Part shown: in pieces, positions 3,752 through 49,566 of the stretch | Layout of the letters: each line of letters opens with the position of its first letter | Numbering within the stretch: position 1 is the first letter of the stretch | Source of the DNA: Candidatus Saccharimonadota bacterium | GTDB taxonomy: Bacteria > Patescibacteriota > Saccharimonadia > CAILAD01 > BJGX01 | DNA: 55,169 nt | Direction of reading: 5' to 3' | Assembly (NCBI GenBank): GCA_035329105.1 | Contig: DAOLHK010000001.1 | Span: 27,955-83,123 of the forward strand | Position numbers and translations under genes: made by a program | The notes under the pieces: model-generated | Told to the model about the DNA's origin: nothing | What the model saw: the letters and a program-made list of their open reading frames with translations, nothing else | Databases searched by the model: none

Positions 3752-6004
3752 TTATCCGAAATGTCCGGCGGTTAAATGCTGGAAATACTGGGGTGCTAGA
3801 TCGATTTGAGGGTTTTTGAGTAGGAGTAGTGCTTCGAGCTGCTGTCTGCCTGCAGGACCGGAATTTAATAAATTATTATATGCATTATTACCTATCACAC
3901 CCTTGAGTCTAGCAATAGCTTCCGTGCGCTCTGCACCAGATACAAAGTCTCCTTTTGCAAGCCTGTCAATGAGCTCTGGGTTGTTGATAGATCCATACCG
4001 ATGGTCAGTGTCTGGTCCGGGTGTTGGAGGATTATCAATGGCATTCACCAGCTTGTAGGCGCCTATGGCACCGACTATGCCCGCTAAGGCTGCTCCGGCA
4101 CGTTTGCTCCATCTACGTGTATTGGTTTGTTTTTCTTGAGCTGTAAGTTCTTGACCAATATTTTCTTTTCTTGTCTTGTCTCTATTTGGGTCGCCAGACT
4201 CTTTGAACTTCTGAGACCCTAGGCCGAATTTCTCACTACGGGCGCCTACCATTTCTCCTACACCTCTACTTGCATTGTATGCACCATACATTCCCACAGC
4301 AGTCCTACCTCCGAAACCTAATATTGCTAAGGGGGCTAAACCAGTTACTGTACCCGTGATACCAATACCAGTAAGAGCAAGTCCTGCAACCATTCTAGTC
4401 TTAGGGTGTTTCTTGAGCCATTCATTCATCTTGGCAAGTTTGGGGTGCTCTGCTGTACGTTGACGTAGCATCTCAGCATCCACTCTGGCTCGTACCTTCA
4501 ACAACTCTTCGACTTTGACCTGGTTGAATCTAACCAATTCTTGTTCGAGTAGACTCTCCATATTACGTTGGTAATCAGCTTGTTTAGCTTGATAGTCTAT
4601 CTGTTCTTGTATCTCAGCTGCAAATTGAGCATCTGTGTAATCGCGATATTTTGGATCTCTATCAGCAGGTGCAAGTAATCTTTGGTGGTCTAGAGTTCTT
4701 TGGATAGATTCGGACTGACTCACATAGTCTTTTGATAGCTCGGAATTTTGTAGACCATTTCGCATGTTTTCAACATGCTTTTGTGATAACGCAGCACAAT
4801 AAGCTTCGAAGGCTCGATCCATGTTTTCTTTTTCTCGAGCAAGATTTTCTTTGGCTTCTTTGCCAGCAAACATCTTCTCGGATCTTATTCGTGCTGCCGC
4901 CCATCGCTCAGTGGCTTCATCATAGGCAGCTTGTGCTTCGGTGATATCAGGTATGGGTTCAATTGGACGAGGTTCTGGTTGGGGTTGAGGCTCAGGCTGT
5001 GGTTCGGGCTCAGGCTGTGGTTCGGGCTCGGGCTGTGGTTCGGGCTCGGGCTGTGGTTCGGGCTCGGACGGTTTGATTTTAGTTTTTTGCTCTATAACTG
5101 GTACTTCTATCTTAAAGTCATTCCACTCTTGGCCCTTATCTCTAAGCTTGTCCATTTCTTCCCAACTAGCGCCGCCAGTCTCAAGCCATTCTTTCAAAAC
5201 AGCTTTGTCATATTTTTTTAACAATGCCAAATCTTCACTGATTCTTGCTTTCTCATCAACATCTTCTTTACCTAGAGATGCTCGTTGATCTTTGAGATAA
5301 GTTGTCATGGCAGCAATTTCTACTGGGCTAAGTCTAACTCCTTCTACATGTTCACCTGAAGTATCCAAAAGTGCTAGCCATTGTTCTTCCCTCCATCTAT
5401 CAAGGTGAGTAGCTACAATATCAGGATCATACTTGAGTTCACCTGTCCTGCCAGAAATAACCATCTCATCATGAAGAAGTGGCTTTTCTTTACGGCGCAA
5501 ATCTTTGAGTCTTTCCCAAGATGCTGCCATCTCTTCTTTGACTTGCTCTGGAGTAAGAGTTTCGAGCGCTACAGCTGCTGACCTTTCAGGCTTCGCAGGT
5601 GTTGGCTCTGTAGTTGAGGCCAAATCTGTTTCTAATATGCCCAAATAAGCTTCAAGGGACCTAGTGGAAAGCCCTTTAGCTCTACCTTCTTCGATGTCTT
5701 TTTTTACTCCGTCGATTTTGCCTTTTATTTCGGATCTCTTATCGGCTCTCTCAAGACCTGCTTCTGTATCTGTGGTTTCGGGAGTAGCAGTGGCAGGTTC
5801 TGGTGTTTCGGCGCTTGGCGTGGGAGGTGCTGCAGGTTCACCCGTGGTGTTTGAAGCTGCAGTAGGTGTAGATGGCTCTCTTGTACCAGTACCTGGTGGT
5901 GGTTCGGGTGGGGCCATTAGTCTGGCTGCTACCTCTTCTGGTGTAGGTGGATCGAATGATTCTGCTGAACTTCCACCTGGAGTCGTCTCTACACTATCTG
6001 CCAT
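3752..6004 (-). CDS. Large membrane-anchored hypothetical protein (750 aa) with low-complexity N-terminus and PEPEPQ repeats
   Basis: P/T/E-rich N-terminus, a (PEPEPQ)n tract and a long charged coiled-coil-like middle. Gly-rich hydrophobic segments (MVAGLALTGIGITGTVTGLAPLAILGFGG; AGAALAGIVGAIGAY). About 100-aa C-terminal domain. AAGGA SD upstream. Confidence 0.75.
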   Translation of the reverse strand: MADSVETTPGGSSAESFDPPTPEEVAARLMAPPEPPPGTGTREPSTPTAASNTTGEPAAPPTPSAETPEPATATPETTDTEAGLERADKRSEIKGKIDGVKKDIEEGRAKGLSTRSLEAYLGILETDLASTTEPTPAKPERSAAVALETLTPEQVKEEMAASWERLKDLRRKEKPLLHDEMVISGRTGELKYDPDIVATHLDRWREEQWLALLDTSGEHVEGVRLSPVEIAAMTTYLKDQRASLGKEDVDEKARISEDLALLKKYDKAVLKEWLETGGASWEEMDKLRDKGQEWNDFKIEVPVIEQKTKIKPSEPEPQPEPEPQPEPEPQPEPEPQPEPQPQPEPRPIEPIPDITEAQAAYDEATERWAAARIRSEKMFAGKEAKENLAREKENMDRAFEAYCAALSQKHVENMRNGLQNSELSKDYVSQSESIQRTLDHQRLLAPADRDPKYRDYTDAQFAAEIQEQIDYQAKQADYQRNMESLLEQELVRFNQVKVEELLKVRARVDAEMLRQRTAEHPKLAKMNEWLKKHPKTRMVAGLALTGIGITGTVTGLAPLAILGFGGRTAVGMYGAYNASRGVGEMVGARSEKFGLGSQKFKESGDPNRDKTRKENIGQELTAQEKQTNTRRWSKRAGAALAGIVGAIGAYKLVNAIDNPPTPGPDTDHRYGSINNPELIDRLAKGDFVSGAERTEAIARLKGVIGNNAYNNLLNSGPAGRQQLEALLLLKNPQIDLAPQYFQHLTAGHFG
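4991..5062. repeat. Four tandem 18-bp repeats (CTCRGGCTGTGGTTCGGG) inside the 750-aa CDS
   Basis: Read directly: units at 4991-5008, 5009-5026, 5027-5044 and 5045-5062, with degenerate copies flanking (4971-4990, 5063-5068). They encode PEPEPQ repeats on the minus strand. Confidence 0.9.
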
Positions 6005-20843: not shown

Positions 20844-21638
20844 TTATTCCTCCGAGTTAGTTTCTTCGTTTTTTACTGCTTCTGCAGCGGCTTTGGCTTT
20901 GTATTCTGTGTAACCTTTGCTGCTTGCGCTGGCAATTCTTGAAGTAATAAGATCTACTGTCTTGATGGCATCGTCATTGGCAGCAATTGGAAAATCAGCA
21001 AACTCTGGATTGGCATTGGTATCTGCTATAGCGATGACAGGTATGTTGAGCTTATGAGCTTCCAAGATAGCGATATCTTCTCGTACCATATCTACTACAA
21101 ATATTGCAGAAGGTAGACCGTGCATTTCACGCACTCCATCAAATGTTTTAGCTAATTTTGACATCTGCTTCTCTAGTAATAGTTTCTCTTTCTTGATGGT
21201 GCCAGCAAAGTCGTTTTCAGCTTGCTGAGCTTCGAGCTTCTTGAGTCTTTGGATACGCAACTTGATAGTGTCTAGATTAGTAAGCATACCACCCAGCCAT
21301 CGATAAGTTACATATGGCATACCGGCTTCGGTTGCATACTTTTCTATGATTGGTTTGGCTTGTCGTTTGGTACCTACAAACAGTATTTGGCCACCTTGTT
21401 TGCAGATATCATAAGCTGCTTTTTCAGCTGCTTCGAGCTGGCTTGCTGTGATAGTCAGATCGATAATGTGCACTCCAGAACGCACACCGAAGATATATGG
21501 TTTCATTTTGGGATTCCAGCGATCGGTGCGTTGACCAAAGTGAGCTCCTGCTTCGAGTAGCTGTTTGAGTATCGGGTCTATTTTAGTTTTTGTAGTAGAT
21601 TTTACAGATTTATTATCTGTTTTTTTGGCAACTGCCAT
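20844..21638 (-). CDS. rpsB: 30S ribosomal protein S2
   Basis: 264 aa. LLEAGAHFGQRTDRWNPKM. rpsB-tsf-frr-uppS synteny. Confidence 0.96.
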   Translation of the reverse strand: MAVAKKTDNKSVKSTTKTKIDPILKQLLEAGAHFGQRTDRWNPKMKPYIFGVRSGVHIIDLTITASQLEAAEKAAYDICKQGGQILFVGTKRQAKPIIEKYATEAGMPYVTYRWLGGMLTNLDTIKLRIQRLKKLEAQQAENDFAGTIKKEKLLLEKQMSKLAKTFDGVREMHGLPSAIFVVDMVREDIAILEAHKLNIPVIAIADTNANPEFADFPIAANDDAIKTVDLITSRIASASSKGYTEYKAKAAAEAVKNEETNSEE

Positions 21639-21702: not shown

Positions 21703-21873
21703 TGTTTCGTTAATTTTTTGACCTATCAATTCTATCAAGTTAATAGAGAATAGTCAATATACCGATGATACTCTACTTTTATCTATTTATTGATTTTATA
21801 CATACTATATGATATTATATCATCGCAACATTCGTACCTATTTGCCTACAAGTTTCCGAGAAAGGAAAACAAT

Positions 21874-22248
21874 ATGAGCAAAAAATATGGTTTTGGCGTT
21901 TTGAGCCTTGAGCTCACAATTACCGACGAAGAATATGGTATGTTCAGCGAAGGACGAAAGGCACGTATCTTCTGGTTCTGGTACATATTAACGTTGGCAA
22001 TTTTCATGTTCCCAGTTGCCATAGGAGCACTTATCGCCTCCTTTATTACCAATATCATACTTCCAGAAGGCGGCCACCCTTGGTTCATATTTCCCGCTGC
22101 ACTGCTAGCGATGCACATAATATTGGTCGTCTTCGGCAGGAAGGGCCTCGTCTACTGCGAGGAAGAAGTGGACGGAAATGTCCTGACTATCCAGGCTGGC
22201 ACATTTAAGTTTCGTGACATCTTCCGGAAGTCCAGCTCATCCAACTAG
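21874..22248 (+). CDS. Small two-TM membrane protein (124 aa), orphan, GC above local background
   Basis: ATG at 21874 preceded by AAAGGAAAACAAT, preferred over the tracked upstream start at 21790. Hydrophobic segments FWFWYILTLAIFMFPVAIGALIASFI and WFIFPAALLAMHIILVVF. Plus strand, against the backbone direction. Confidence 0.6.
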   Translation: MSKKYGFGVLSLELTITDEEYGMFSEGRKARIFWFWYILTLAIFMFPVAIGALIASFITNIILPEGGHPWFIFPAALLAMHIILVVFGRKGLVYCEEEVDGNVLTIQAGTFKFRDIFRKSSSSN

Positions 22249-22323
22249 CTCTCACGAGCCGTTTGCCAGTGCGAAAACTGGCATCACCCAAGCCCACAAC
22301 TATTTGTGTATTTAGGTGATAAA
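22249..22323 (+). repeat. Copy A of a ~75-nt hairpin-containing 3' module shared with 47912..47991
   Basis: TCACGAGCCGTTTGCCAG (22252-22269), identical 12-mer GCATCACCCAAG (22281-22292) and TTGTGTATTTAGGT (22304-22317). Imperfect stem ATCACCCAAG/TTTAGGTGAT plus a small stem GCCAGT/ACTGGC (22265-22282). It fills the whole gap between two converging stop codons. Confidence 0.45.
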
Positions 22324-24111
22324 TTAGCCGACCATATCAAGTTTCTTGAGCTTGGCCTTACCTACTGCTGTCTTGCTGATATTTTGCAGATCAAGTAGCT
22401 CTTTGTATATACCAGTCTTGCGTTTGGCGAGTTCTTGTGGAGAACCTATCTCCACGACTTGACCGTTTTTGATACCAACTATAGTATCTACACCTGAAAT
22501 AGTACTAAGTCGGTGAGCGATGATCATAGTAGTACGATTTGCCATCAGTCTTTCTAGTGCACCTTGTACCTCATGCTCGGCTTTGCTATCTAAACTGCTG
22601 GTAGCTTCGTCGAGGATCAGTATAGGAGGATTTTTCATGATGGCTCGAGCAATAGCTATACGTTGCTTTTGTCCTCCACTAAGCTTCACACCTCTCTCAC
22701 CTATCTCAGTATCAAATCCCTTGGGTAGTTTCTTGATAAAATCATAGGCATTGGCAGCTTTGGCAGCGGAAATTAGTTGTTTCTCGGTGGGCTTCTTGGA
22801 GCCATAGCCGATATTGTCTTTTACAGTACCGGAAAACAATTGTGGCTCCTGGAATACTACACCTATACTAGACCTCAAGCTTTCTTGAGTCACGCTATCT
22901 ACTGACTGACCATCTATCAGGATCTGACCTGCATTTAGCTCATAAAATCGCAACATTAGATTGGCAAGTGTGCTCTTACCTTCACCCGATTCTCCTACCA
23001 AAGCTAGCTTTTTACCTGGGTCTATCGTAAAGCTCACGTTTTTGAGTACATTTTTGCCTTTTTCATAAGCAAATCCAACATTTTGGTATTCTACCCTCGA
23101 ATTACGTATTTTGAGGGGTTTTGCACCTTCTTTGTCTACAATATCGGCTTTGGTGTCCATAATCTCAAAATAGTCTTTACTGCCTGCTGTTGCACGCTGT
23201 AAGGCATCTATGATGAAACTACTACCGAATAACGGGAATTGAGCCTGAACAGATAGAGTCAGCAGTAGAGTCATAGTACCTAGGTTGTAGACCCCAATAT
23301 ATGCCTGATAAATTATTACTCCCATAATAGCTGTAAATATAATGTTCAAAACAAGCCTGCGATAGACATCGTACTTGTGCCACTGCACTGATTGAACCTT
23401 GGTTTGGCTTTCTATCTTGATTCGTTTGTTGCCATAAAACATTCGTTCTGATGCTTCCATCACAAATGATTTGACTACTCTTACTTGCACAATTGATTCA
23501 ACAAAGCGACCATTGCCGATGTCGAGGTCTTTGTTGATTCCCTCCTGGTGCTTTTGCCAACTCTTACTGCTCAAGTGAGTTATCCAGATATATATTGGGA
23601 ATATCGCTGCTAGTAATAGTGCTACTGGCCAGCTGTAAAAAGCTATGACCACTAGAGTAATCACAGTAGTCAAGAAAAACTGCACAAACCCATTGGCTAG
23701 AGTCTGCATCAGTGTAGAAATAGTAGCGATTGAACGATCAAGACGAGCCGTAATCTTACCTGTTATCTCATTGTCATAATAGCTAATTGGTAACTTCATG
23801 AGATGTTCAAAATAGCGATTTGACATCAAGGTATTGAGCTTGACACTCATCATATCACCCCAATAACCGCTTAGATTTGACAGTAGGGTCAATACAATTG
23901 ATGCAATACCACCTAGTGCTACCAATCCAAATAAATACTGCAAACCAGGTGAATTGCCATTATTTGCCGCTACAATACCGTCTACTAACCCCTTGGTAAC
24001 AAATGGCGTTACTAGATTCAGGCCAGATGTAATAACAACAACTATCGCTATAGCTGTATAGTAAGGCCACAAAACCTTGGAATACTTTATAATCTTCCAG
24101 ATTGCTTTCAT
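22324..24111 (-). CDS. ABC exporter, fused permease/ATPase (ABCB/MsbA-like)
   Basis: 595 aa. Six-TM domain plus NBD with Walker A GESGEGKST, signature LSGGQKQRIAIARA and Walker B ILILDEATS. Confidence 0.92.
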   Translation of the reverse strand: MKAIWKIIKYSKVLWPYYTAIAIVVVITSGLNLVTPFVTKGLVDGIVAANNGNSPGLQYLFGLVALGGIASIVLTLLSNLSGYWGDMMSVKLNTLMSNRYFEHLMKLPISYYDNEITGKITARLDRSIATISTLMQTLANGFVQFFLTTVITLVVIAFYSWPVALLLAAIFPIYIWITHLSSKSWQKHQEGINKDLDIGNGRFVESIVQVRVVKSFVMEASERMFYGNKRIKIESQTKVQSVQWHKYDVYRRLVLNIIFTAIMGVIIYQAYIGVYNLGTMTLLLTLSVQAQFPLFGSSFIIDALQRATAGSKDYFEIMDTKADIVDKEGAKPLKIRNSRVEYQNVGFAYEKGKNVLKNVSFTIDPGKKLALVGESGEGKSTLANLMLRFYELNAGQILIDGQSVDSVTQESLRSSIGVVFQEPQLFSGTVKDNIGYGSKKPTEKQLISAAKAANAYDFIKKLPKGFDTEIGERGVKLSGGQKQRIAIARAIMKNPPILILDEATSSLDSKAEHEVQGALERLMANRTTMIIAHRLSTISGVDTIVGIKNGQVVEIGSPQELAKRKTGIYKELLDLQNISKTAVGKAKLKKLDMVG

Positions 24112-24155
24112 TTAATCTCAGTTTAGCATGTGTCGAAAATTAAAACGAGCCCACC

Positions 24156-24181
24156 GGCCAGACCCCCGCAGGGGTCTGGCC
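24156..24181 (-). terminator. GC-rich stem-loop (11-bp stem, 4-nt loop) at the edge of the GC-rich micro-island
   Basis: GGCCAGACCCC (24156-24166) pairs with GGGGTCTGGCC (24171-24181). On the minus strand a GTTTTAATTTT tract follows about 10 nt later. Confidence 0.55.
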
Positions 24182-24200
24182 AATGAGCCGTGTCGAGGCA

Positions 24201-24240
24201 TCGAACGTATGTGTGTCAGCCGTAGCTTACATACGTTCGA
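24201..24240 (-). other. Perfect 12-bp inverted repeat with 16-nt loop
   Basis: TCGAACGTATGT (24201-24212) pairs with ACATACGTTCGA (24229-24240). It lies between the 41-codon ORF and the GC-rich terminator-like hairpin. Confidence 0.5.
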
Positions 24241-24302
24241 GTACTGCTGTCGGGGCTTCAGCCGTGAGGCTTAGGCCGGTGTTGGTGTGTGACGGGTGAG
24301 CG

Positions 24303-24428
24303 TCAGGTGCAGAGCTGGTCGGTGGGCTCGCCGGCGGCCGTGATGGTCGAGCCCTTCTCGAACAGCCGGTTCGAGGTGTCGGGCGCGGTGGTCTCGGTGT
24401 GGTACCTCGTGAACCAGGTCTGGCGCAT
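24303..24428 (-). CDS. 41-aa ORF with actinobacterial-style codon usage (MRQTWFTRYHTETTAPDTSNRLFEKGSTITAAGEPTDQLCT)
   Basis: All 41 sense codons end in G or C (counted). AAGGGGGG SD 4 nt upstream of the ATG. Too short for the ORF track. The tracked 77-aa frame (24227..24460) is R/P-rich and looks off-frame. It could be a gene fragment. Confidence 0.5.
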   Translation of the reverse strand: MRQTWFTRYHTETTAPDTSNRLFEKGSTITAAGEPTDQLCT

Positions 24429-24488
24429 GGTGCCCCCCTTGGGGTGGTTGTGTTTGCCATACCTCAGCAGTTGCTGTAGGTTATATAC

Positions 24489-24516
24489 ATTATAATCCTA
24501 GTGTTTTGAGTGTCAA
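24489..24516 (-). promoter_or_regulatory. Near-consensus sigma70-type promoter reading into the GC-rich micro-island
   Basis: Minus strand reads TTGACA (24516-24511), a 16-nt spacer, then TATAAT (24494-24489). It lies in AT-rich DNA about 60 nt upstream of the 41-codon ORF. Confidence 0.5.
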
Positions 24517-24597: not shown

Positions 24598-24864
24598 CTA
24601 TCTTTTGGTTTTTGACCGATAGAAGGCTGGCTGAAGCGGACCAGAAATACCATATGGTCGCCCAGCCTGCTCATAGCATTCGAAGTGATATTGCTCGACT
24701 CTATCCCACCTATCACCTTCGTATATATTGCATATTACCTTACGAGGCTTGTTTCTTGCCCTATATACAATTCGCTCACCACACTGTGTACATAGAGTAT
24801 AGCACCCTGTTTCTACAAATCGCACTACTGCTCGTGTACCAAGAACCGTCTCTGACGAATCCAT
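24598..24864 (-). CDS. Small Cys-containing (zinc-ribbon-like) hypothetical protein, 88 aa
   Basis: AGGAGG SD 6 nt upstream. GCYTLCTQCGERI plus further Cys at ICN and FECY. Basic C-terminus. Second gene of a bicistron with 24892..25185. Confidence 0.65.
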   Translation of the reverse strand: MDSSETVLGTRAVVRFVETGCYTLCTQCGERIVYRARNKPRKVICNIYEGDRWDRVEQYHFECYEQAGRPYGISGPLQPAFYRSKTKR

Positions 24865-24891
24865 TTCATACCTCCTGAACTCTTGATTGAC

Positions 24892-25185
24892 TTAGGTTGA
24901 GCTACGTGGCTTCATCAATAGAAAAACAGATACACACAGACTGAACAATAAATACACAAGTGCTTCCCTGTTGTTCTCTGCACTAATCATCGCGTATCCC
25001 ATAGTCAGATAAATCGCCCAAAGTACTCTAGGCATCATCTTGTCTATGACCCAGTCAGCTACCAACTGCTCTCTTGTCTCGGATCCAGTGGGCTCGGCAT
25101 ATCGAAGCTGACTCATAAGTCTCGGAGCCCACCAAGCCACATACAAGCTATAGAGTATCGTGATGACAATCTTGAAAAGTGGCAT
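24892..25185 (-). CDS. Small three-TM membrane protein, 97 aa
   Basis: AAGGAG SD 5 nt upstream. Hydrophobic segments at the N-terminus, middle (VLWAIYLTMGYAMI) and C-terminus (LVYLLFSLCVSVFLL). Confidence 0.65.
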   Translation of the reverse strand: MPLFKIVITILYSLYVAWWAPRLMSQLRYAEPTGSETREQLVADWVIDKMMPRVLWAIYLTMGYAMISAENNREALVYLLFSLCVSVFLLMKPRSST

Positions 25186-25541: not shown

Positions 25542-26123
25542 ATGCGCCTTCTCAGTCAAGCAGTTGTTGCATTTGCAATGATTGCCAACCAGGTGATAAG
25601 TACGGTACATATCCCTATCACCGATACAGCTAAGGCTGCCGAAGCCCAACCTGTAGTACCAAGTAACTACACATTGACAATCAACACTACACAACCCGAA
25701 GCTCTTGAGCTCAAAGCCAACAAAGGAAACTTCGATCAAGAAGTCGTTGCTCCTTTAAAAGCCGCTCAAGCGCTCAAGGCCGCTGCCGACGCTGCTGCAG
25801 CCCAGGAAGCTGCTAATCGAGCTGCTGCAATTGCTGCTACTCGAGTAAGCTCAGCCCCTGCTGCAAAACCTGTCGTAATAGGCGGTGATGATGCTTTCGC
25901 CAAGCTTCGATTCTGTGAAGCTGGTGGTGACTACACCAAGAATACCGGTAACGGATACTATGGTGCCTACCAGTACGACATGCGTACTTGGGCTAACTAT
26001 GGCGGTTATGCTCGACCTGACCTTGCACCTCCAGAGGTACAAGACGCCAAGGCTCGTGCTACCCAAGCCGCTCGTGGTTGGTCTCCATGGCCTGCATGTT
26101 CACGCAAGCTTGGTCTATTGTAA
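25542..26123 (+). CDS. Secreted Rpf-type (resuscitation-promoting-factor-like) transglycosylase-domain protein
   Basis: 193 aa. Hydrophobic N-terminus and an Ala-rich linker. C-terminal FCEAGGDYTKNTGNGYYGAYQYDMRTWANYGGYARPDLAPPEVQDAKARATQAARGWSPWPACS matches the Rpf domain pattern (CE[SA]GG catalytic Glu, NTGNGYYGxxQ, conserved Cys pair). Confidence 0.85.
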   Translation: MRLLSQAVVAFAMIANQVISTVHIPITDTAKAAEAQPVVPSNYTLTINTTQPEALELKANKGNFDQEVVAPLKAAQALKAAADAAAAQEAANRAAAIAATRVSSAPAAKPVVIGGDDAFAKLRFCEAGGDYTKNTGNGYYGAYQYDMRTWANYGGYARPDLAPPEVQDAKARATQAARGWSPWPACSRKLGLL

Positions 26124-47358: not shown

Positions 47359-47472
47359 AAAGTCCTTCTGATCTTTTGAGTAAAAAATAATAGCGCTTAG
47401 CAACTGTAAATGCTCTCGCGCTACATATTCTTTCACTATAGCATCATATAAGATAAAACACAAGCACATATA

Positions 47473-47501
47473 TTGACATAATTAATGTTTAATGTTAATA
47501 T
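47473..47501 (+). promoter_or_regulatory. Candidate promoter of the GC-rich orphan 47573..47911
   Basis: TTGACA (47473-47478), a 17-nt spacer, then TAATAT (47496-47501). Confidence 0.5.
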
Positions 47502-47572
47502 AGTTTCAATTCCTGCATGGATGTGCAGGTGGCTCACGAGATAGTGAGTATCAGAGCAAGGAGATGAGACGG

Positions 47573-47911
47573 ATGTCTTATCATCACGCAGTTGAAATCA
47601 CCAACGGACCGTCGCTACATGACATGAATGGCTCGGTCATGTACGGGCCCAAGATGAGGCCAGTATCTCTCCGCCTTCACTACACCCACACGGGTGAAGG
47701 CGAGGAGCTAAAGGGCTGGGTCGAGGCAATGGTGCTTACCAGGCCTGTTGCCGATCGTTGTCGGTGGTTCATCCGCTTCAGGATCGCTCAAGAACGTGGT
47801 GACTTAGGGCCGCGCTACCGGCACTTCTACTACGACTCGTACAACCGCGAGGGGTTCGAGCTGCCAGACGATCACCCGATGTGCCTGCTCGAGCAGTTCC
47901 TCTACTGCTGA
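47573..47911 (+). CDS. Orphan hypothetical protein (112 aa) in ~57-60% GC DNA
   Basis: AAGGAG lies 9 nt upstream of the ATG at 47573, whereas the tracked ATG at 47564 abuts the SD. One 60-nt line (47641-47700) counts 36 G+C. No family recognised. Confidence 0.6.
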   Translation: MSYHHAVEITNGPSLHDMNGSVMYGPKMRPVSLRLHYTHTGEGEELKGWVEAMVLTRPVADRCRWFIRFRIAQERGDLGPRYRHFYYDSYNREGFELPDDHPMCLLEQFLYC

Positions 47912-47991
47912 TATCATCAGCCGCCCGCCGGGAGCGTTATCTCGGTGCATCACCCAAGTCTATAATATTATTGTAGATTTAGGTATTTGCA
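47912..47991 (+). repeat. Copy B of the ~75-nt 3' module shared with 22249..22323
   Basis: TCATCAGCCGCCCGCCGG (47914-47931), GCATCACCCAAG (47947-47958) and TTGTAGATTTAGGT (47971-47984). Imperfect stem ACCCAAGTCTA/TAGATTTAGGT. It fills the gap between two converging stop codons. Confidence 0.45.
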
Positions 47992-49566
47992 CTAAAACAA
48001 TGACTGTTGCTCAAACGACTTATTACTGGCTGGTAAGCCTATAGCATTTCCCTGCAAAACTTCACCCCTAGTCAGAGCTATTAAGAATTCAAAGATACGC
48101 ACCATGGCATAGGTATCAAGCTCACAGTATTGTCGAAGACTCTCCATTAGCTTGGCCTTCTCAGCTTCACTATTCTTGTCAGTATAGACAGCCTCCATCC
48201 ATAGCCTTTGAGCGGTAGCTCCCTCAGATATGTCCATATCCTTGTAGCTTAGTTCTGGTGCTAATACTGGCAGTACATTCTTGATGCTTGCCGACCCCAT
48301 GAAGTCCTTGTCTACATAGTGACCATTCTTGAACGGCAACATCAGGTCCAATACTCTGTCATTGACTTGAGCCAAAAATACAGCATAGTCAGGTTGCAGT
48401 TCTGCCATGAGATTATTACAAGTTTTCTCAAATCCCTCATACCACACTAGTACGCTTCCCTTGTCACCAATATCACTTTGCAATTGTGCAAGTAGCTCTG
48501 GTACTGGATTGGTATCGAGCGTATGTAAGAATTCTCGATGCTCTAGATCAGCATCTAGGCTCTTAAGTATGTGTAATGAATACTGAAAAGGTAGTTGTTG
48601 GTATGGTTTCAGACCATCAAAAGGCGGAACTATAGAGGATAGTGTCTCATAGTCTAGAAAATATATAGGATATTCTAGCTTATCTATAAACTTAGCTATT
48701 TTGCCAGTATCTACTAGCGGCTCACCTAGCCTGGTAGCTTCAATCTGTCGTTTCTGTACGGGCTTGAGCTCGAATGTATCTGGGATATCGACAATCGAAC
48801 TAATATGCATATCCTCAAGATTCCCAATCTGCTCGGGTGTAACTTGTGCCAAACTATAGATAGAATACTTATCGTCTGTAGGCTTGATACTCAATAAGAT
48901 ATCAATCCACTCTTTATATCCACCAAGTTTGACTCGCCTAGGAGTAGGATCCGGCATCGACTCAAGTCCTATCGTATTGATCGCTGCTACAATATTACGT
49001 CTAGTTGATTCTAATTTGGATTTGACTTGTATGGTTACATCTTCTTTGCAAGTCATTTGCTTAGCATCAATTTCACCATGACGCACGTAGCTATTGTTGC
49101 AATATATCACTGATATATTTCTTACCTTATAGCCAGCTCCTTCTAATACAATTACCTGAAATGCCAAATCCTCAATATGATCAGGCTTGACCTTGGTGCT
49201 AGACTTGATCTCATATAAATCGAAAGTATTTTCTTCCACCAACTCGATCACATCCACTATACAAGTGATGCTATATCTATCTATATCAGCTTCAAATCTT
49301 CCTTGAGTCAGCACCTTGGCTCCGTCCGCCAAAGCTTTCTTGGTCCTATCAGGCATCGAGAGATACTCATTGTAGTTTTCAAACCCTACTCTGACTATGT
49401 CGCTAAATAATTCTTCAGCATACTTTTCAAATAAGTTACCGGCATCAAACATAGCTTGCAAGTTGGCATCTGGTTCGGGAAGCTTCTTCTTGTCATGTCG
49501 TTTGAGCCATAGCCAAGCAGGATGCTTCAAGAACATCATATATTCTGATTTGCTCAAGGTAATCAT
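47992..49566 (-). CDS. DUF2779-like protein (putative nuclease-fold protein)
   Basis: 524 aa. N-terminal LSKSEYMMFLKHPAWLWLK matches my recollection of the DUF2779 start. Assignment unverified. Confidence 0.6.
   Translation of the reverse strand: MITLSKSEYMMFLKHPAWLWLKRHDKKKLPEPDANLQAMFDAGNLFEKYAEELFSDIVRVGFENYNEYLSMPDRTKKALADGAKVLTQGRFEADIDRYSITCIVDVIELVEENTFDLYEIKSSTKVKPDHIEDLAFQVIVLEGAGYKVRNISVIYCNNSYVRHGEIDAKQMTCKEDVTIQVKSKLESTRRNIVAAINTIGLESMPDPTPRRVKLGGYKEWIDILLSIKPTDDKYSIYSLAQVTPEQIGNLEDMHISSIVDIPDTFELKPVQKRQIEATRLGEPLVDTGKIAKFIDKLEYPIYFLDYETLSSIVPPFDGLKPYQQLPFQYSLHILKSLDADLEHREFLHTLDTNPVPELLAQLQSDIGDKGSVLVWYEGFEKTCNNLMAELQPDYAVFLAQVNDRVLDLMLPFKNGHYVDKDFMGSASIKNVLPVLAPELSYKDMDISEGATAQRLWMEAVYTDKNSEAEKAKLMESLRQYCELDTYAMVRIFEFLIALTRGEVLQGNAIGLPASNKSFEQQSLF

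Follow-up and report, generated by a model that had tools for sequence, protein, structure and literature searches.

The window analysed here, a 55 kb segment of the chromosome of Candidatus Saccharibacteria (Patescibacteria) with ~40% GC, carries two copies of a module of about 75 nucleotides (nt), each placed behind a small gene that possesses its own promoter. This module is a homologous, selected and structured element that marks the 3' border of a family of gene cassettes, and comparison with Saccharibacteria-like metagenome contigs indicates a family of 11 copies behind eight unrelated families of open reading frames (ORFs). In our view, there is about an even chance that the module forms the conserved 3' end of accessory expression cassettes that are small and self-contained, i.e., as an inherited RNA module that acts as a stop, a stabiliser and an insulator at the end of the transcript. 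The two copies present in the window, the parts of which they are composed, the genes in front of them (orphan 1 and orphan 2) and the backbone genes that converge on them are the following.

21790..21818, plus strand: orphan 1 promoter, TTGATT-17 nt-TATTAT, with TG before the -10 box
21874..22248, plus strand: orphan 1 ORF, 124 aa, predicted membrane protein, GC content at third codon positions (GC3) 0.57, Shine-Dalgarno sequence GAAAGGA
22249-22323, plus strand: module copy 1
22249..22263, plus strand: copy 1 leader, CTCTCACGAGCCGTT, carrying the shared YRAGCCG motif
22264..22283, plus strand: copy 1 hairpin 1, TGCCAGT-GCGAAA-ACTGGCA, 7 bp, GC-rich
22284..22319, plus strand: copy 1 hairpin 2, TCACCCAAG...TTTAGGTGA, AT-rich apex, conserved C.A and G.T
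22324..24111, minus strand: converging backbone gene, ABC transporter, 595 aa, stop codon 4 nt past hairpin 2
47473..47501, plus strand: orphan 2 promoter, TTGACA-17 nt-TAATAT
47508..47572, plus strand: orphan 2 5' untranslated region (UTR), with two small hairpins and the Shine-Dalgarno sequence AAGGAG
47573..47911, plus strand: orphan 2 ORF, 112 aa, GC3 0.71, predicted all-beta fold
47912-47991, plus strand: module copy 2
47912..47927, plus strand: copy 2 leader, TATCATCAGCCGCCCG
47928..47945, plus strand: copy 2 hairpin 1, CCGGGA-GCGTTA-TCTCGG
47950..47986, plus strand: copy 2 hairpin 2, TCACCCAAGTCTATAAT-ATT-ATTGTAGATTTAGGTAT
47992..49566, minus strand: converging backbone gene, DUF2779 protein, 524 aa

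Homology, structure and selection of the module

An earlier, sequence-only reading of the window had described three blocks of similarity behind the two small genes, and this description holds in most of its details. Both modules begin directly after the stop codon of a plus-strand ORF (21874-22248 and 47573-47911). Block 1, TCACGAGCCGTTTGCCAG vs TCATCAGCCGCCCGCCGG, is identical at 12 of 18 positions, with transitions making up five of the six differences. Block 2 is the 12-mer GCATCACCCAAG, for which the window has exactly two matches, at 22281-22292 and 47947-47958 of the plus strand. Block 3 follows 11 and 12 nt past block 2, as TTGTGTATTTAGGT at 22304-22317 and TTGTAGATTTAGGT at 47971-47984 (12 of 14 positions identical), and the sequence TTGTNNATTTAGGT is found in the window solely at 22304 and 47971. 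Moreover, both modules stop 3-7 nt short of the stop codon of a converging gene (the ABC transporter and the DUF2779 protein, respectively), and the ORFs upstream of them are unrelated to each other. The same reading had taken the 3' arm of the hairpin to be decayed; instead, it belongs to a conserved imperfect hairpin with one fixed C.A position and one fixed G.T position, and a second, GC-rich hairpin that had escaped notice lies just upstream, within block 1.

A chance similarity, or two terminators that converged independently, is an explanation that is already refuted: single 11-12-mers can indeed recur in 55 kb, but the collinear pattern was present in none of 100 shuffles, the local alignment score lies far outside the controls and nine further homologous copies occur in other genomes. 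The 12-mer taken singly, with one mismatch allowed, gave two or more matches in 2 of 100 shuffles, and the combined block pattern is found twice in the window vs 0 in 100 shuffles that preserved dinucleotides. The two 3' regions align locally with a score of 35, for which 5,000 shuffles gave a maximum of 25, and when either module was compared with 80-nt tiles of the window (10,900 comparisons), the highest score was 24 (mean 13.3, sd 2.3). The nine copies in other genomes have covariance-model E-values of 1e-7 to 1e-18, to which weaker variants can be added. As had been supposed from the two copies, these are not independent terminators; they are members of one sequence family travelling with unrelated genes (11 copies, eight ORF families). 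Within the window, neither nhmmer nor a covariance model found a third copy.

The module consists of a short leader with the motif YRAGCCG, a GC-rich hairpin 1 and an AT-rich hairpin 2. The leader occupies the 15-16 nt directly after the stop codon, and its YRAGCCG motif is common to copy 1, copy 2 and the copies of two related loci (L043 and L048B). Hairpin 2 starts 0-4 nt after hairpin 1 and comprises 16-17 pairs, with a conserved base, TCACCCAAG/TTTAGGTGA (TCACCYAAR/YTTRGGTGA), a variable AT-rich apex and a loop of 3 to 10 nt across the copies. When folding is compared with that of shuffled sequences, z-scores of -4.3 and -3.2 are obtained for copy 1 and copy 2, respectively.

Both hairpins are supported by the way in which their sequences vary. 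Hairpin 1 occurs with six different stem sequences, all of which pair, and in the orthologues of copy 2 its 5' arm reads CCGAGA, giving a perfect stem. Regarding hairpin 2, 89.6% of the alignment cells are paired vs at most 43% when the partners are slid against each other; three pairs have changed on both sides (e.g., U-A to C-G, in four of nine copies), and 2 of 500 shuffles attained the observed covariation score. In the two copies of L048, a pair of the hairpin 2 base changes from A-T to G.T and then to G-C. Two positions that do not form Watson-Crick pairs are conserved as well, the C.A in seven and the G.T in eight of nine copies. Read as sense RNA, hairpin 2 contains 17 G.U pairs and 15 mismatches vs 11 G.U pairs and 21 mismatches in the antisense, an asymmetry that lends weak support to a role in the sense RNA.

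The module is, moreover, under purifying selection. Between the window and L039, identity amounts to 82% in the module (89% in leader and hairpin 1), 69% in the ORF and 74% in the gene of BipA, and between the window and L047 to 69% in the module and 54% in the ORF. In orthologous loci, the module has changed less than its ORF and no more than housekeeping coding sequence. It can also be observed that the helix at the base of hairpin 2 (22283-22320; 47949-47984), ATCACC/GGTGAT, has the sequence of a Shine-Dalgarno/anti-Shine-Dalgarno duplex with the 3' tail of 16S rRNA. This likeness is probably a coincidence, since the variants at L048, L050 and L037 retain the pairing but not that sequence.

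Cassette genes and their genomic sites

All cassettes possess their own near-consensus promoter of the sigma-70 type, a Shine-Dalgarno site and a small ORF. These small ORFs are genuine genes, and their composition is unusual: that of orphan 2 keeps its frame and length down to 61% protein identity with an excess of third-position changes, and GC3 ranges from 0.54 to 0.85 in the cassette ORFs vs 0.35 to 0.42 in the backbone genes. In the orthologues of orphan 2, GC3 stays at 0.65-0.71, and the maintenance of such a high value in a genome with 40% GC, when the synonymous sites of these orthologues are probably saturated, is in itself unexplained. The second hairpin of the orphan 2 5' UTR shows a compensatory replacement in L039. 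A common 5' module is not apparent, an all-against-all comparison of upstream regions having given only orthologous matches and promoter hexamers. Among the eight families of cassette ORFs, no mutual similarity could be detected, and none of them matches Pfam or PHROG.

The two genes of the window had been regarded as orphans, which is right insofar as they are lineage-restricted and too strict insofar as homologues exist for both. Orphan 2 has homologues with 61-86% identity, and a profile search among 1.8 billion representatives added only five small remote relatives; its predicted structure (all-beta, with a predicted local distance difference score, pLDDT, of 78) has no match in the PDB at E below 0.2. 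An orthologue of orphan 1 that is 37% identical occupies the same site in L047, and a word-indexed search returned no homologue of this gene. Continuation of the coding sequence into the module by stop-codon read-through, or a selenocysteine insertion sequence (SECIS), was considered and rejected, as the in-frame extension shows no bias towards synonymous changes between orthologues.

Further copies of the module came from a pattern scan and a covariance model (R1), which recovered L043, L044, L047, L048 (two copies) and L050, together with variants in L037 and L039. The pattern scan of metagenomes gave few matches overall; those in L043 and L044 each lie behind a different unrelated ORF and are followed by the promoter of the next co-directional gene, and one of these two loci originates from a groundwater 0.1-µm fraction. 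Syntenic loci were retrieved through homologues of the ABC transporter. A scan of a genome collection for GCATCACCCAAG-N(8-30)-ATTTAGGT gave 14 single matches in unrelated phyla and with the wrong spacing, the source species remaining unmatched; these are treated as noise because about 25 would be expected by chance, according to our estimate.

The homologues of orphan 2 (61-86% identity) occupy the same locus between the genes of BipA and the DUF2779 protein, and behind them the leader and hairpin 1 are nearly unchanged, while the C.A position of hairpin 2 has become T.G. In L037 and L039, a relaxed structural scan found a variant of the module behind a GC-rich 137-aa gene located between BipA and the orphan 2 homologue. 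This 137-aa cassette (L037 501-1000; L039 1997-2501) has its own promoter, a 5' hairpin and the module variant, and stands back to back with the orphan 2 cassette. It is absent from the window (47400-47500), and the borders of the corresponding indel, one of which falls inside the hairpin 2 of this cassette, share the microhomology ATGTT.

The space between the ABC transporter and rpsB (window 21745-22323; L045-L050) is a hypervariable hotspot of gene turnover, in which the content of seven related lineages differs entirely and measures 0.6 to 6.5 kb, within the same limits, namely the stop codon of the ABC transporter gene and the promoter region of rpsB. Among it are a 264-aa gene, a secreted protein of the sortase type, a Y-family polymerase accompanied by SRAP and EamA genes, and the cassettes. 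A comparison of loci with and without the cassette, as advised in the sequence-only reading, could be made at this site. L045, whose ABC transporter is 97% identical to that of the window, has the 264-aa gene and neither cassette nor module, and L046 (ABC 93%) has a 187-aa secreted protein, a canonical bidirectional terminator and no module. L047 (ABC 87%) carries the orphan 1 orthologue with the module; L048 (ABC 83%) has two tandem cassettes beside the ABC stop codon, each composed of a promoter, a 5' hairpin, a Shine-Dalgarno site, one or more small GC-rich ORFs and a module; and in L050 (ABC 87%) the cassette is reversed in orientation and its module is divergent. Since L045 lacks cassette and module together despite its nearly identical transporter, the module belongs to the small gene and not to the converging backbone gene. 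The portable cassette end proposed previously can therefore be retained as far as it concerns an end that travels with unrelated small genes; its further interpretation as a recombination or insertion site is so far not supported (see below). The copies are homologous by descent, the module having stayed in place while the ORFs in front of it were swapped or diverged past recognition, and the cassettes are gained and lost at intergenic hotspots, probably through recombination in their conserved flanks.

Transcription and possible functions of the module

Orphan 1 is transcribed in at least eight metatranscriptomes. Between 21300 and 22900, eight of these data sets yielded contigs of orphan 1 only, with the exception of one piece of rpsB (21300-21355, run X51). 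The RNA contigs start at 21836-21849, about 10-25 nt past the predicted transcription start, and three of them extend across the module to 22330-22333, where they stop 10-13 nt past hairpin 2 without entering the ABC transporter gene. Contigs of orphan 2 (47513-47852, with starts at 47513-47525) are present in eight runs, in which the flanks are mostly absent. Of the terminator that had been imagined to travel with the gene, transcripts crossing the module and ending just past it are in agreement with the RNA contigs, whereas a canonical intrinsic terminator is excluded because neither hairpin is followed by a U-tract: hairpin 1 is followed by UCACCCAAG and hairpin 2 by mixed sequence. Furthermore, RNA contigs of three runs from two studies end exactly at 22242-22243, 3-4 nt before the stop codon of orphan 1. 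This break is not a strain variant, since DNA contigs of four metagenomes are continuous and monomorphic at these positions and show no joints; it could be a site of RNA processing or an artefact of coverage caused by the hairpins.

A cassette comprises a near-consensus promoter of the sigma-70 type, a 5' UTR that often opens with a hairpin, a Shine-Dalgarno site, a small lineage-restricted and usually GC3-rich ORF, and the module. If the module acts as the 3' end of the cassette RNA, it would be transcribed as the 3' UTR, with the transcript ending about 10-15 nt past hairpin 2. The two adjacent hairpins would stop or pause the polymerase in spite of the missing U-tract, perhaps helped by a factor recognising the conserved base of hairpin 2, and would also block 3'-to-5' exonucleases. 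The RNA of the cassette could in this way become abundant without running as antisense into the neighbouring backbone gene. We infer termination and stabilisation as functions of the module, and a trans-acting reader, from this arrangement.

Among the closest parallels to such an element are the sequence-conserved terminators, i.e., the inverted DNA-uptake sequences of Neisseria and Haemophilus and the tuberculosis rho-independent terminators (TRIT) and 'I-shaped' hairpins of mycobacteria, in which a conserved hairpin likewise stands behind unrelated genes without a canonical U-tract. These occur, however, in hundreds of copies per genome and also behind core genes, whereas the module is rare and specific to cassettes and comes with no evidence for DNA uptake; a function as a DNA-uptake sequence was rejected, the copy number of the module being far too low.

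Several results weigh against this 3'-end function. There is no U-tract after either hairpin on either strand, and a terminator scan lists canonical terminators nearby but not the modules, although the same genomes do use canonical ones. Five of the orphan 1 contigs end at 22203-22259, most RNA contigs stopping at 22242-22259 and thus short of the module, and words of the module are present in only three metatranscriptomic RNA-seq runs (X45, X46, X52) and in a compost run labelled as whole-genome shotgun (WGS; X61); the main 3' end may lie upstream of the module, or the hairpins may be under-sampled. The RNA evidence consists of assembled contigs, without information on strand or mapping of true ends, and the positions at which these contigs end are, thus, indicative only. 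Folding energies are similar on the two strands, the sense strand being better in six of ten copies. Moreover, the conservation goes beyond the needs of pairing (the fixed C.A and G.T, and the 3' arm ATTGTRGATTTAGGTGA), which a plain block to exonucleases does not explain. Finally, a function at the 3' end gives, by itself, no account of why a single module is found behind eight unrelated ORFs.

This last point is met by a rather unlikely alternative, in which hairpin 2 would form, as folded single-stranded DNA, a structure-specific site of recombination (similar to attC, to an IS200/IS605 or repetitive extragenic palindromic (REP) hairpin, or to a dif-like border) that is served by a recombinase encoded elsewhere in the genome and through which cassettes would be captured, stacked and exchanged. 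The same end would then be expected behind the eight unrelated ORFs, and the tandem cassettes of L048, which share one orientation, are each closed by a module and have modules that are mutually closest relatives, would fit as well. In three lineages, the module also lies at the very edge of the hypervariable hotspot, with 3-10 nt between it and the ABC stop codon, and the border of the 137-aa cassette indel inside its hairpin 2 points in the same direction; the conserved mismatches could mark one strand, and the absence of a U-tract is in agreement with such a site. The core heptamers of attC follow the consensus RYYYAAC/GTTRRRY, with invariant AAC/GTT. The arms of hairpin 2 match this consensus at six of seven positions in most copies, and the variant of L050 matches it exactly (ACCCAAC/GTTGGGT).

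Nevertheless, the mismatch falls in the invariant part: the triplets AAC/GTT are AAG/TTT in nine of the 11 copies, which have (A/G)CC(C/T)AA(G/A) and TTT(A/G)GG(T/C), and GTTGGGT is carried only by the divergent variants of L050 and L037/L039. Hairpin 2 is a continuous stem of 36-44 nt, irregular only at one C.A and one G.T, without the L boxes, the unpaired spacer and the length of 57-141 nt of attC. Neither a tyrosine or serine recombinase or other integrase, nor a Y1/HUH or other transposase, nor a reverse transcriptase was found in the 55 kb or within the annotated 10 kb flanking the other copies, for which ORFs were scanned directly and precomputed Pfam listings were used for the rest of the window and the flanks. 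Each cassette has its own promoter, and orientation varies. The distance between the hairpin and the backbone junction varies as well, and the hotspot borders show neither target duplications nor fixed junctions. Four DNA metagenomes contain no joints that would indicate skipping, excision or circles, and the cassettes are inherited vertically over considerable divergence, remaining at the same locus across 61-86% protein identity. In addition, hairpin 1, which is always present, would have no role. These results speak against the recombination or insertion site envisaged in the earlier reading. Two related candidates were rejected separately: a dif/Xer-like site, as loops of 3 to 10 nt are unfit for a fixed central region of 6-8 bp, and a fragment of a tRNA or transfer-messenger RNA (tmRNA) serving as an att site, as the window contains no tRNA genes.

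It is also unlikely, and marginally more so, that the module acts in cis within the 3' UTR as a regulatory RNA element, recognised by a specific factor and setting the expression of a regulon of accessory cassettes, e.g., as a processing site of the RNase III type that leaves a protective hairpin (as between the cistrons of phage T7), a site for an RNA chaperone or the body of a small RNA derived from the 3' UTR. The fixed C.A and G.T and the nearly invariant 3' arm, kept across genomes from sludge, groundwater and other sites, would be well explained by such a reader, as would the stronger conservation of the module relative to the ORFs. The two adjacent helices could stack to about 25 bp, and the two classes of RNA contig ends (~22243 and ~22331) on monomorphic DNA hint at processing. 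However, cleavage and a bound factor are predictions, contig ends being weak evidence, and no Rfam family matches. In Rfam 15, the whole window gave no match at the gathering threshold, the modules none even at E up to 10 and the copy 1 cassette none at all; five weak matches in the copy 2 cassette fall in its 5' UTR and ORF (47499-47714). Furthermore, this explanation largely overlaps with a stop and stabiliser at the 3' end rather than excluding it.

Two known systems can be compared at this point. Phage morons and the RNase III signals of T7 share with the cassettes an autonomous promoter, a small ORF and a 3' hairpin between backbone genes, and in those systems conserved 3' hairpins define and protect the ends of mRNAs; here, on the other hand, the cassettes lie outside any prophage context and match neither PHROG nor phage DNA, and cleavage by RNase III is at most predicted. 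Type I toxin-antitoxin systems (hok/sok, ldr, fst, txpA/ratA) are likewise small intergenic genes, some encoding short membrane proteins and sometimes arranged in tandem, which have strong promoters and whose structured UTRs are conserved more strongly than the peptide. Unlike these, most cassette ORFs have 95-180 aa and several are soluble, only the ORF of L048B (47 aa) being of suitable size for such toxins, which are hydrophobic and shorter than 60 aa, and no antisense promoter or antisense RNA was detected. A convincing antisense promoter is lacking because the region downstream of the window copies is the coding sequence of the converging gene.

A combination of two functions is more doubtful still: an integron-like cassette system without a linked integrase, in which hairpin 2 would be the recombination site, formed from single-stranded DNA (e.g., during natural transformation), while hairpin 1 and the leader would be the terminator. 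Self-expressing, GC3-rich cassettes would thereby be captured, stacked and exchanged at intergenic hotspots beside core genes. As in integron cassettes and their attC sites (especially those of sedentary chromosomal integrons, e.g., the Vibrio cholerae repeat (VCR) arrays of Vibrio), the small ORFs are unrelated and mostly orphans, and behind each stands an imperfect palindrome of a single family, with conserved ends and a variable centre; tandem stacking occurs in L048, neighbouring sites are the most similar and the arms resemble RYYYAAC/GTTRRRY. The differences are that no nearby integrase or other recombinase, attI or common promoter is found, that all cassettes have strong promoters of their own and orientation varies, that tandem sites are limited to L048, that hairpin 2 has half the minimum length of attC and mostly does not keep AAC/GTT, that an extra GC-rich hairpin is present, and that evidence for excision is lacking.

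Lastly, it is very improbable that hairpin 2 is a selfish palindrome, REP-like or similar to a miniature inverted-repeat transposable element (MITE), that was inserted independently after existing GC-rich, terminator-like hairpins, the link to small ORFs being a target preference. Hairpin 2 is an imperfect, extragenic palindrome of 36-44 nt at gene 3' ends that matches its model on both strands, and hairpin 1 is wholly different between non-orthologous copies, as would be expected. Likewise, the REP sequences and bacterial interspersed mosaic elements (BIME) of E. coli and Pseudomonas are stabilising palindromes of about 35-45 nt at gene 3' ends, often between convergent genes, and the module is transcribed within the 3' UTR and plausibly blocks exonucleases. 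Nonetheless, the homology reaches upstream of hairpin 1, where YRAGCCG is shared by copy 1, copy 2, L043 and L048B, and no presence/absence polymorphism is seen behind orthologous ORFs. The copy number is very low, with two copies in 55 kb and none outside cassettes, including backbone intergenic regions, in about 300 kb of related loci, and the module always comes with the GC-rich hairpin and leader and with a self-promoted small accessory ORF in front. No gene similar to a REP-associated tyrosine transposase (RAYT) was seen, and the window has no Y1 transposase.

Saccharibacteria and other Patescibacteria have tiny genomes whose accessory genes are mostly unannotated, and a cassette end of 75 nt offers a handle for finding those that are self-promoted and turn over fast. 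As orphan 1 is one of only a few genes of this organism for which contigs assemble from metatranscriptomes of activated sludge, the cassette genes are candidates for roles in the epibiotic lifestyle. A 3'-end element without a U-tract and with a dedicated reader would be a new mode of forming transcript ends in this phylum and a useful genetic part. If the module were instead a recombination site, it would belong to a new system of gene capture in ultrasmall epibiotic bacteria, and an integron-like system might offer a view of how attC-like sites become attached to unrelated genes.

Genomic setting and other features of the window

The window contains rpsB, tsf, frr, uppS, mreBC, a penicillin-binding protein (PBP) gene, secA, serS, typA/bipA, parAB, prfA and a neighbourhood with a sortase. 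Sequences closely homologous to its ABC transporter carry the label Candidatus Saccharibacteria or Patescibacteria, and the sequencing runs in which sequence of the window occurs are metagenomes of activated sludge and wastewater. The window is a chromosome segment rather than a phage, since no phage DNA matches: among 50,697 phage records, none matched the locus or the module. A phage origin was rejected as well, with no PHROG match and two empty pattern scans of viral contigs. A diversity-generating retroelement (DGR), a retron or a group II intron was discarded, because the window holds neither a reverse transcriptase nor a pair of template and variable repeats.

Several other features were observed in the window. 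At 1-1180, on the minus strand, an ORF of more than 353 codons with 64% GC and a GTG start at 1059 continues beyond the start of the window. It has the Shine-Dalgarno sequence GGAGGGAGG, an AT-rich promoter of the TTGACA type recognised by eye near 1150-1180, and no Pfam, PHROG or phage match, and looks like another gene of foreign composition under a native promoter.

On the minus strand at 24148-24516, a perfect consensus promoter (TTGACA-16-TATAAT, 12 of 12 positions) precedes about 300 nt with 61-64% GC that end in a strong canonical terminator, GGCCAGACCCC-TGCG-GGGGTCTGGCC followed by a U-tract. This stretch includes a possible 41-aa ORF (MRQTWFTRYH...), has no Rfam match and left no contig among those of four metatranscriptomes; it may encode a small protein or be a structured RNA of no known family. 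Next to it (24598-25185, minus strand), two small ORFs of 88 and 97 aa that belong to no known family are present in metatranscriptome contigs with several single-base variants. Their expression implies that the strong expression of small uncharacterised genes extends beyond the cassettes that carry the module.

At 25542-26123, on the plus strand, a precomputed listing gives an Rpf-like transglycosylase (PF06737; 51% GC). This family is known mainly from Actinomycetota, and the enzyme may have been acquired from, or be aimed at, actinobacterial hosts. Finally, an 18-nt tandem repeat of at least five units similar to GGCTCRGGCTGTGGTTCG is located at 4953-5072, within a 750-aa ORF (3752-6004), where it encodes a Pro/Glu-rich repeat with a weak match to the PARP repeat.

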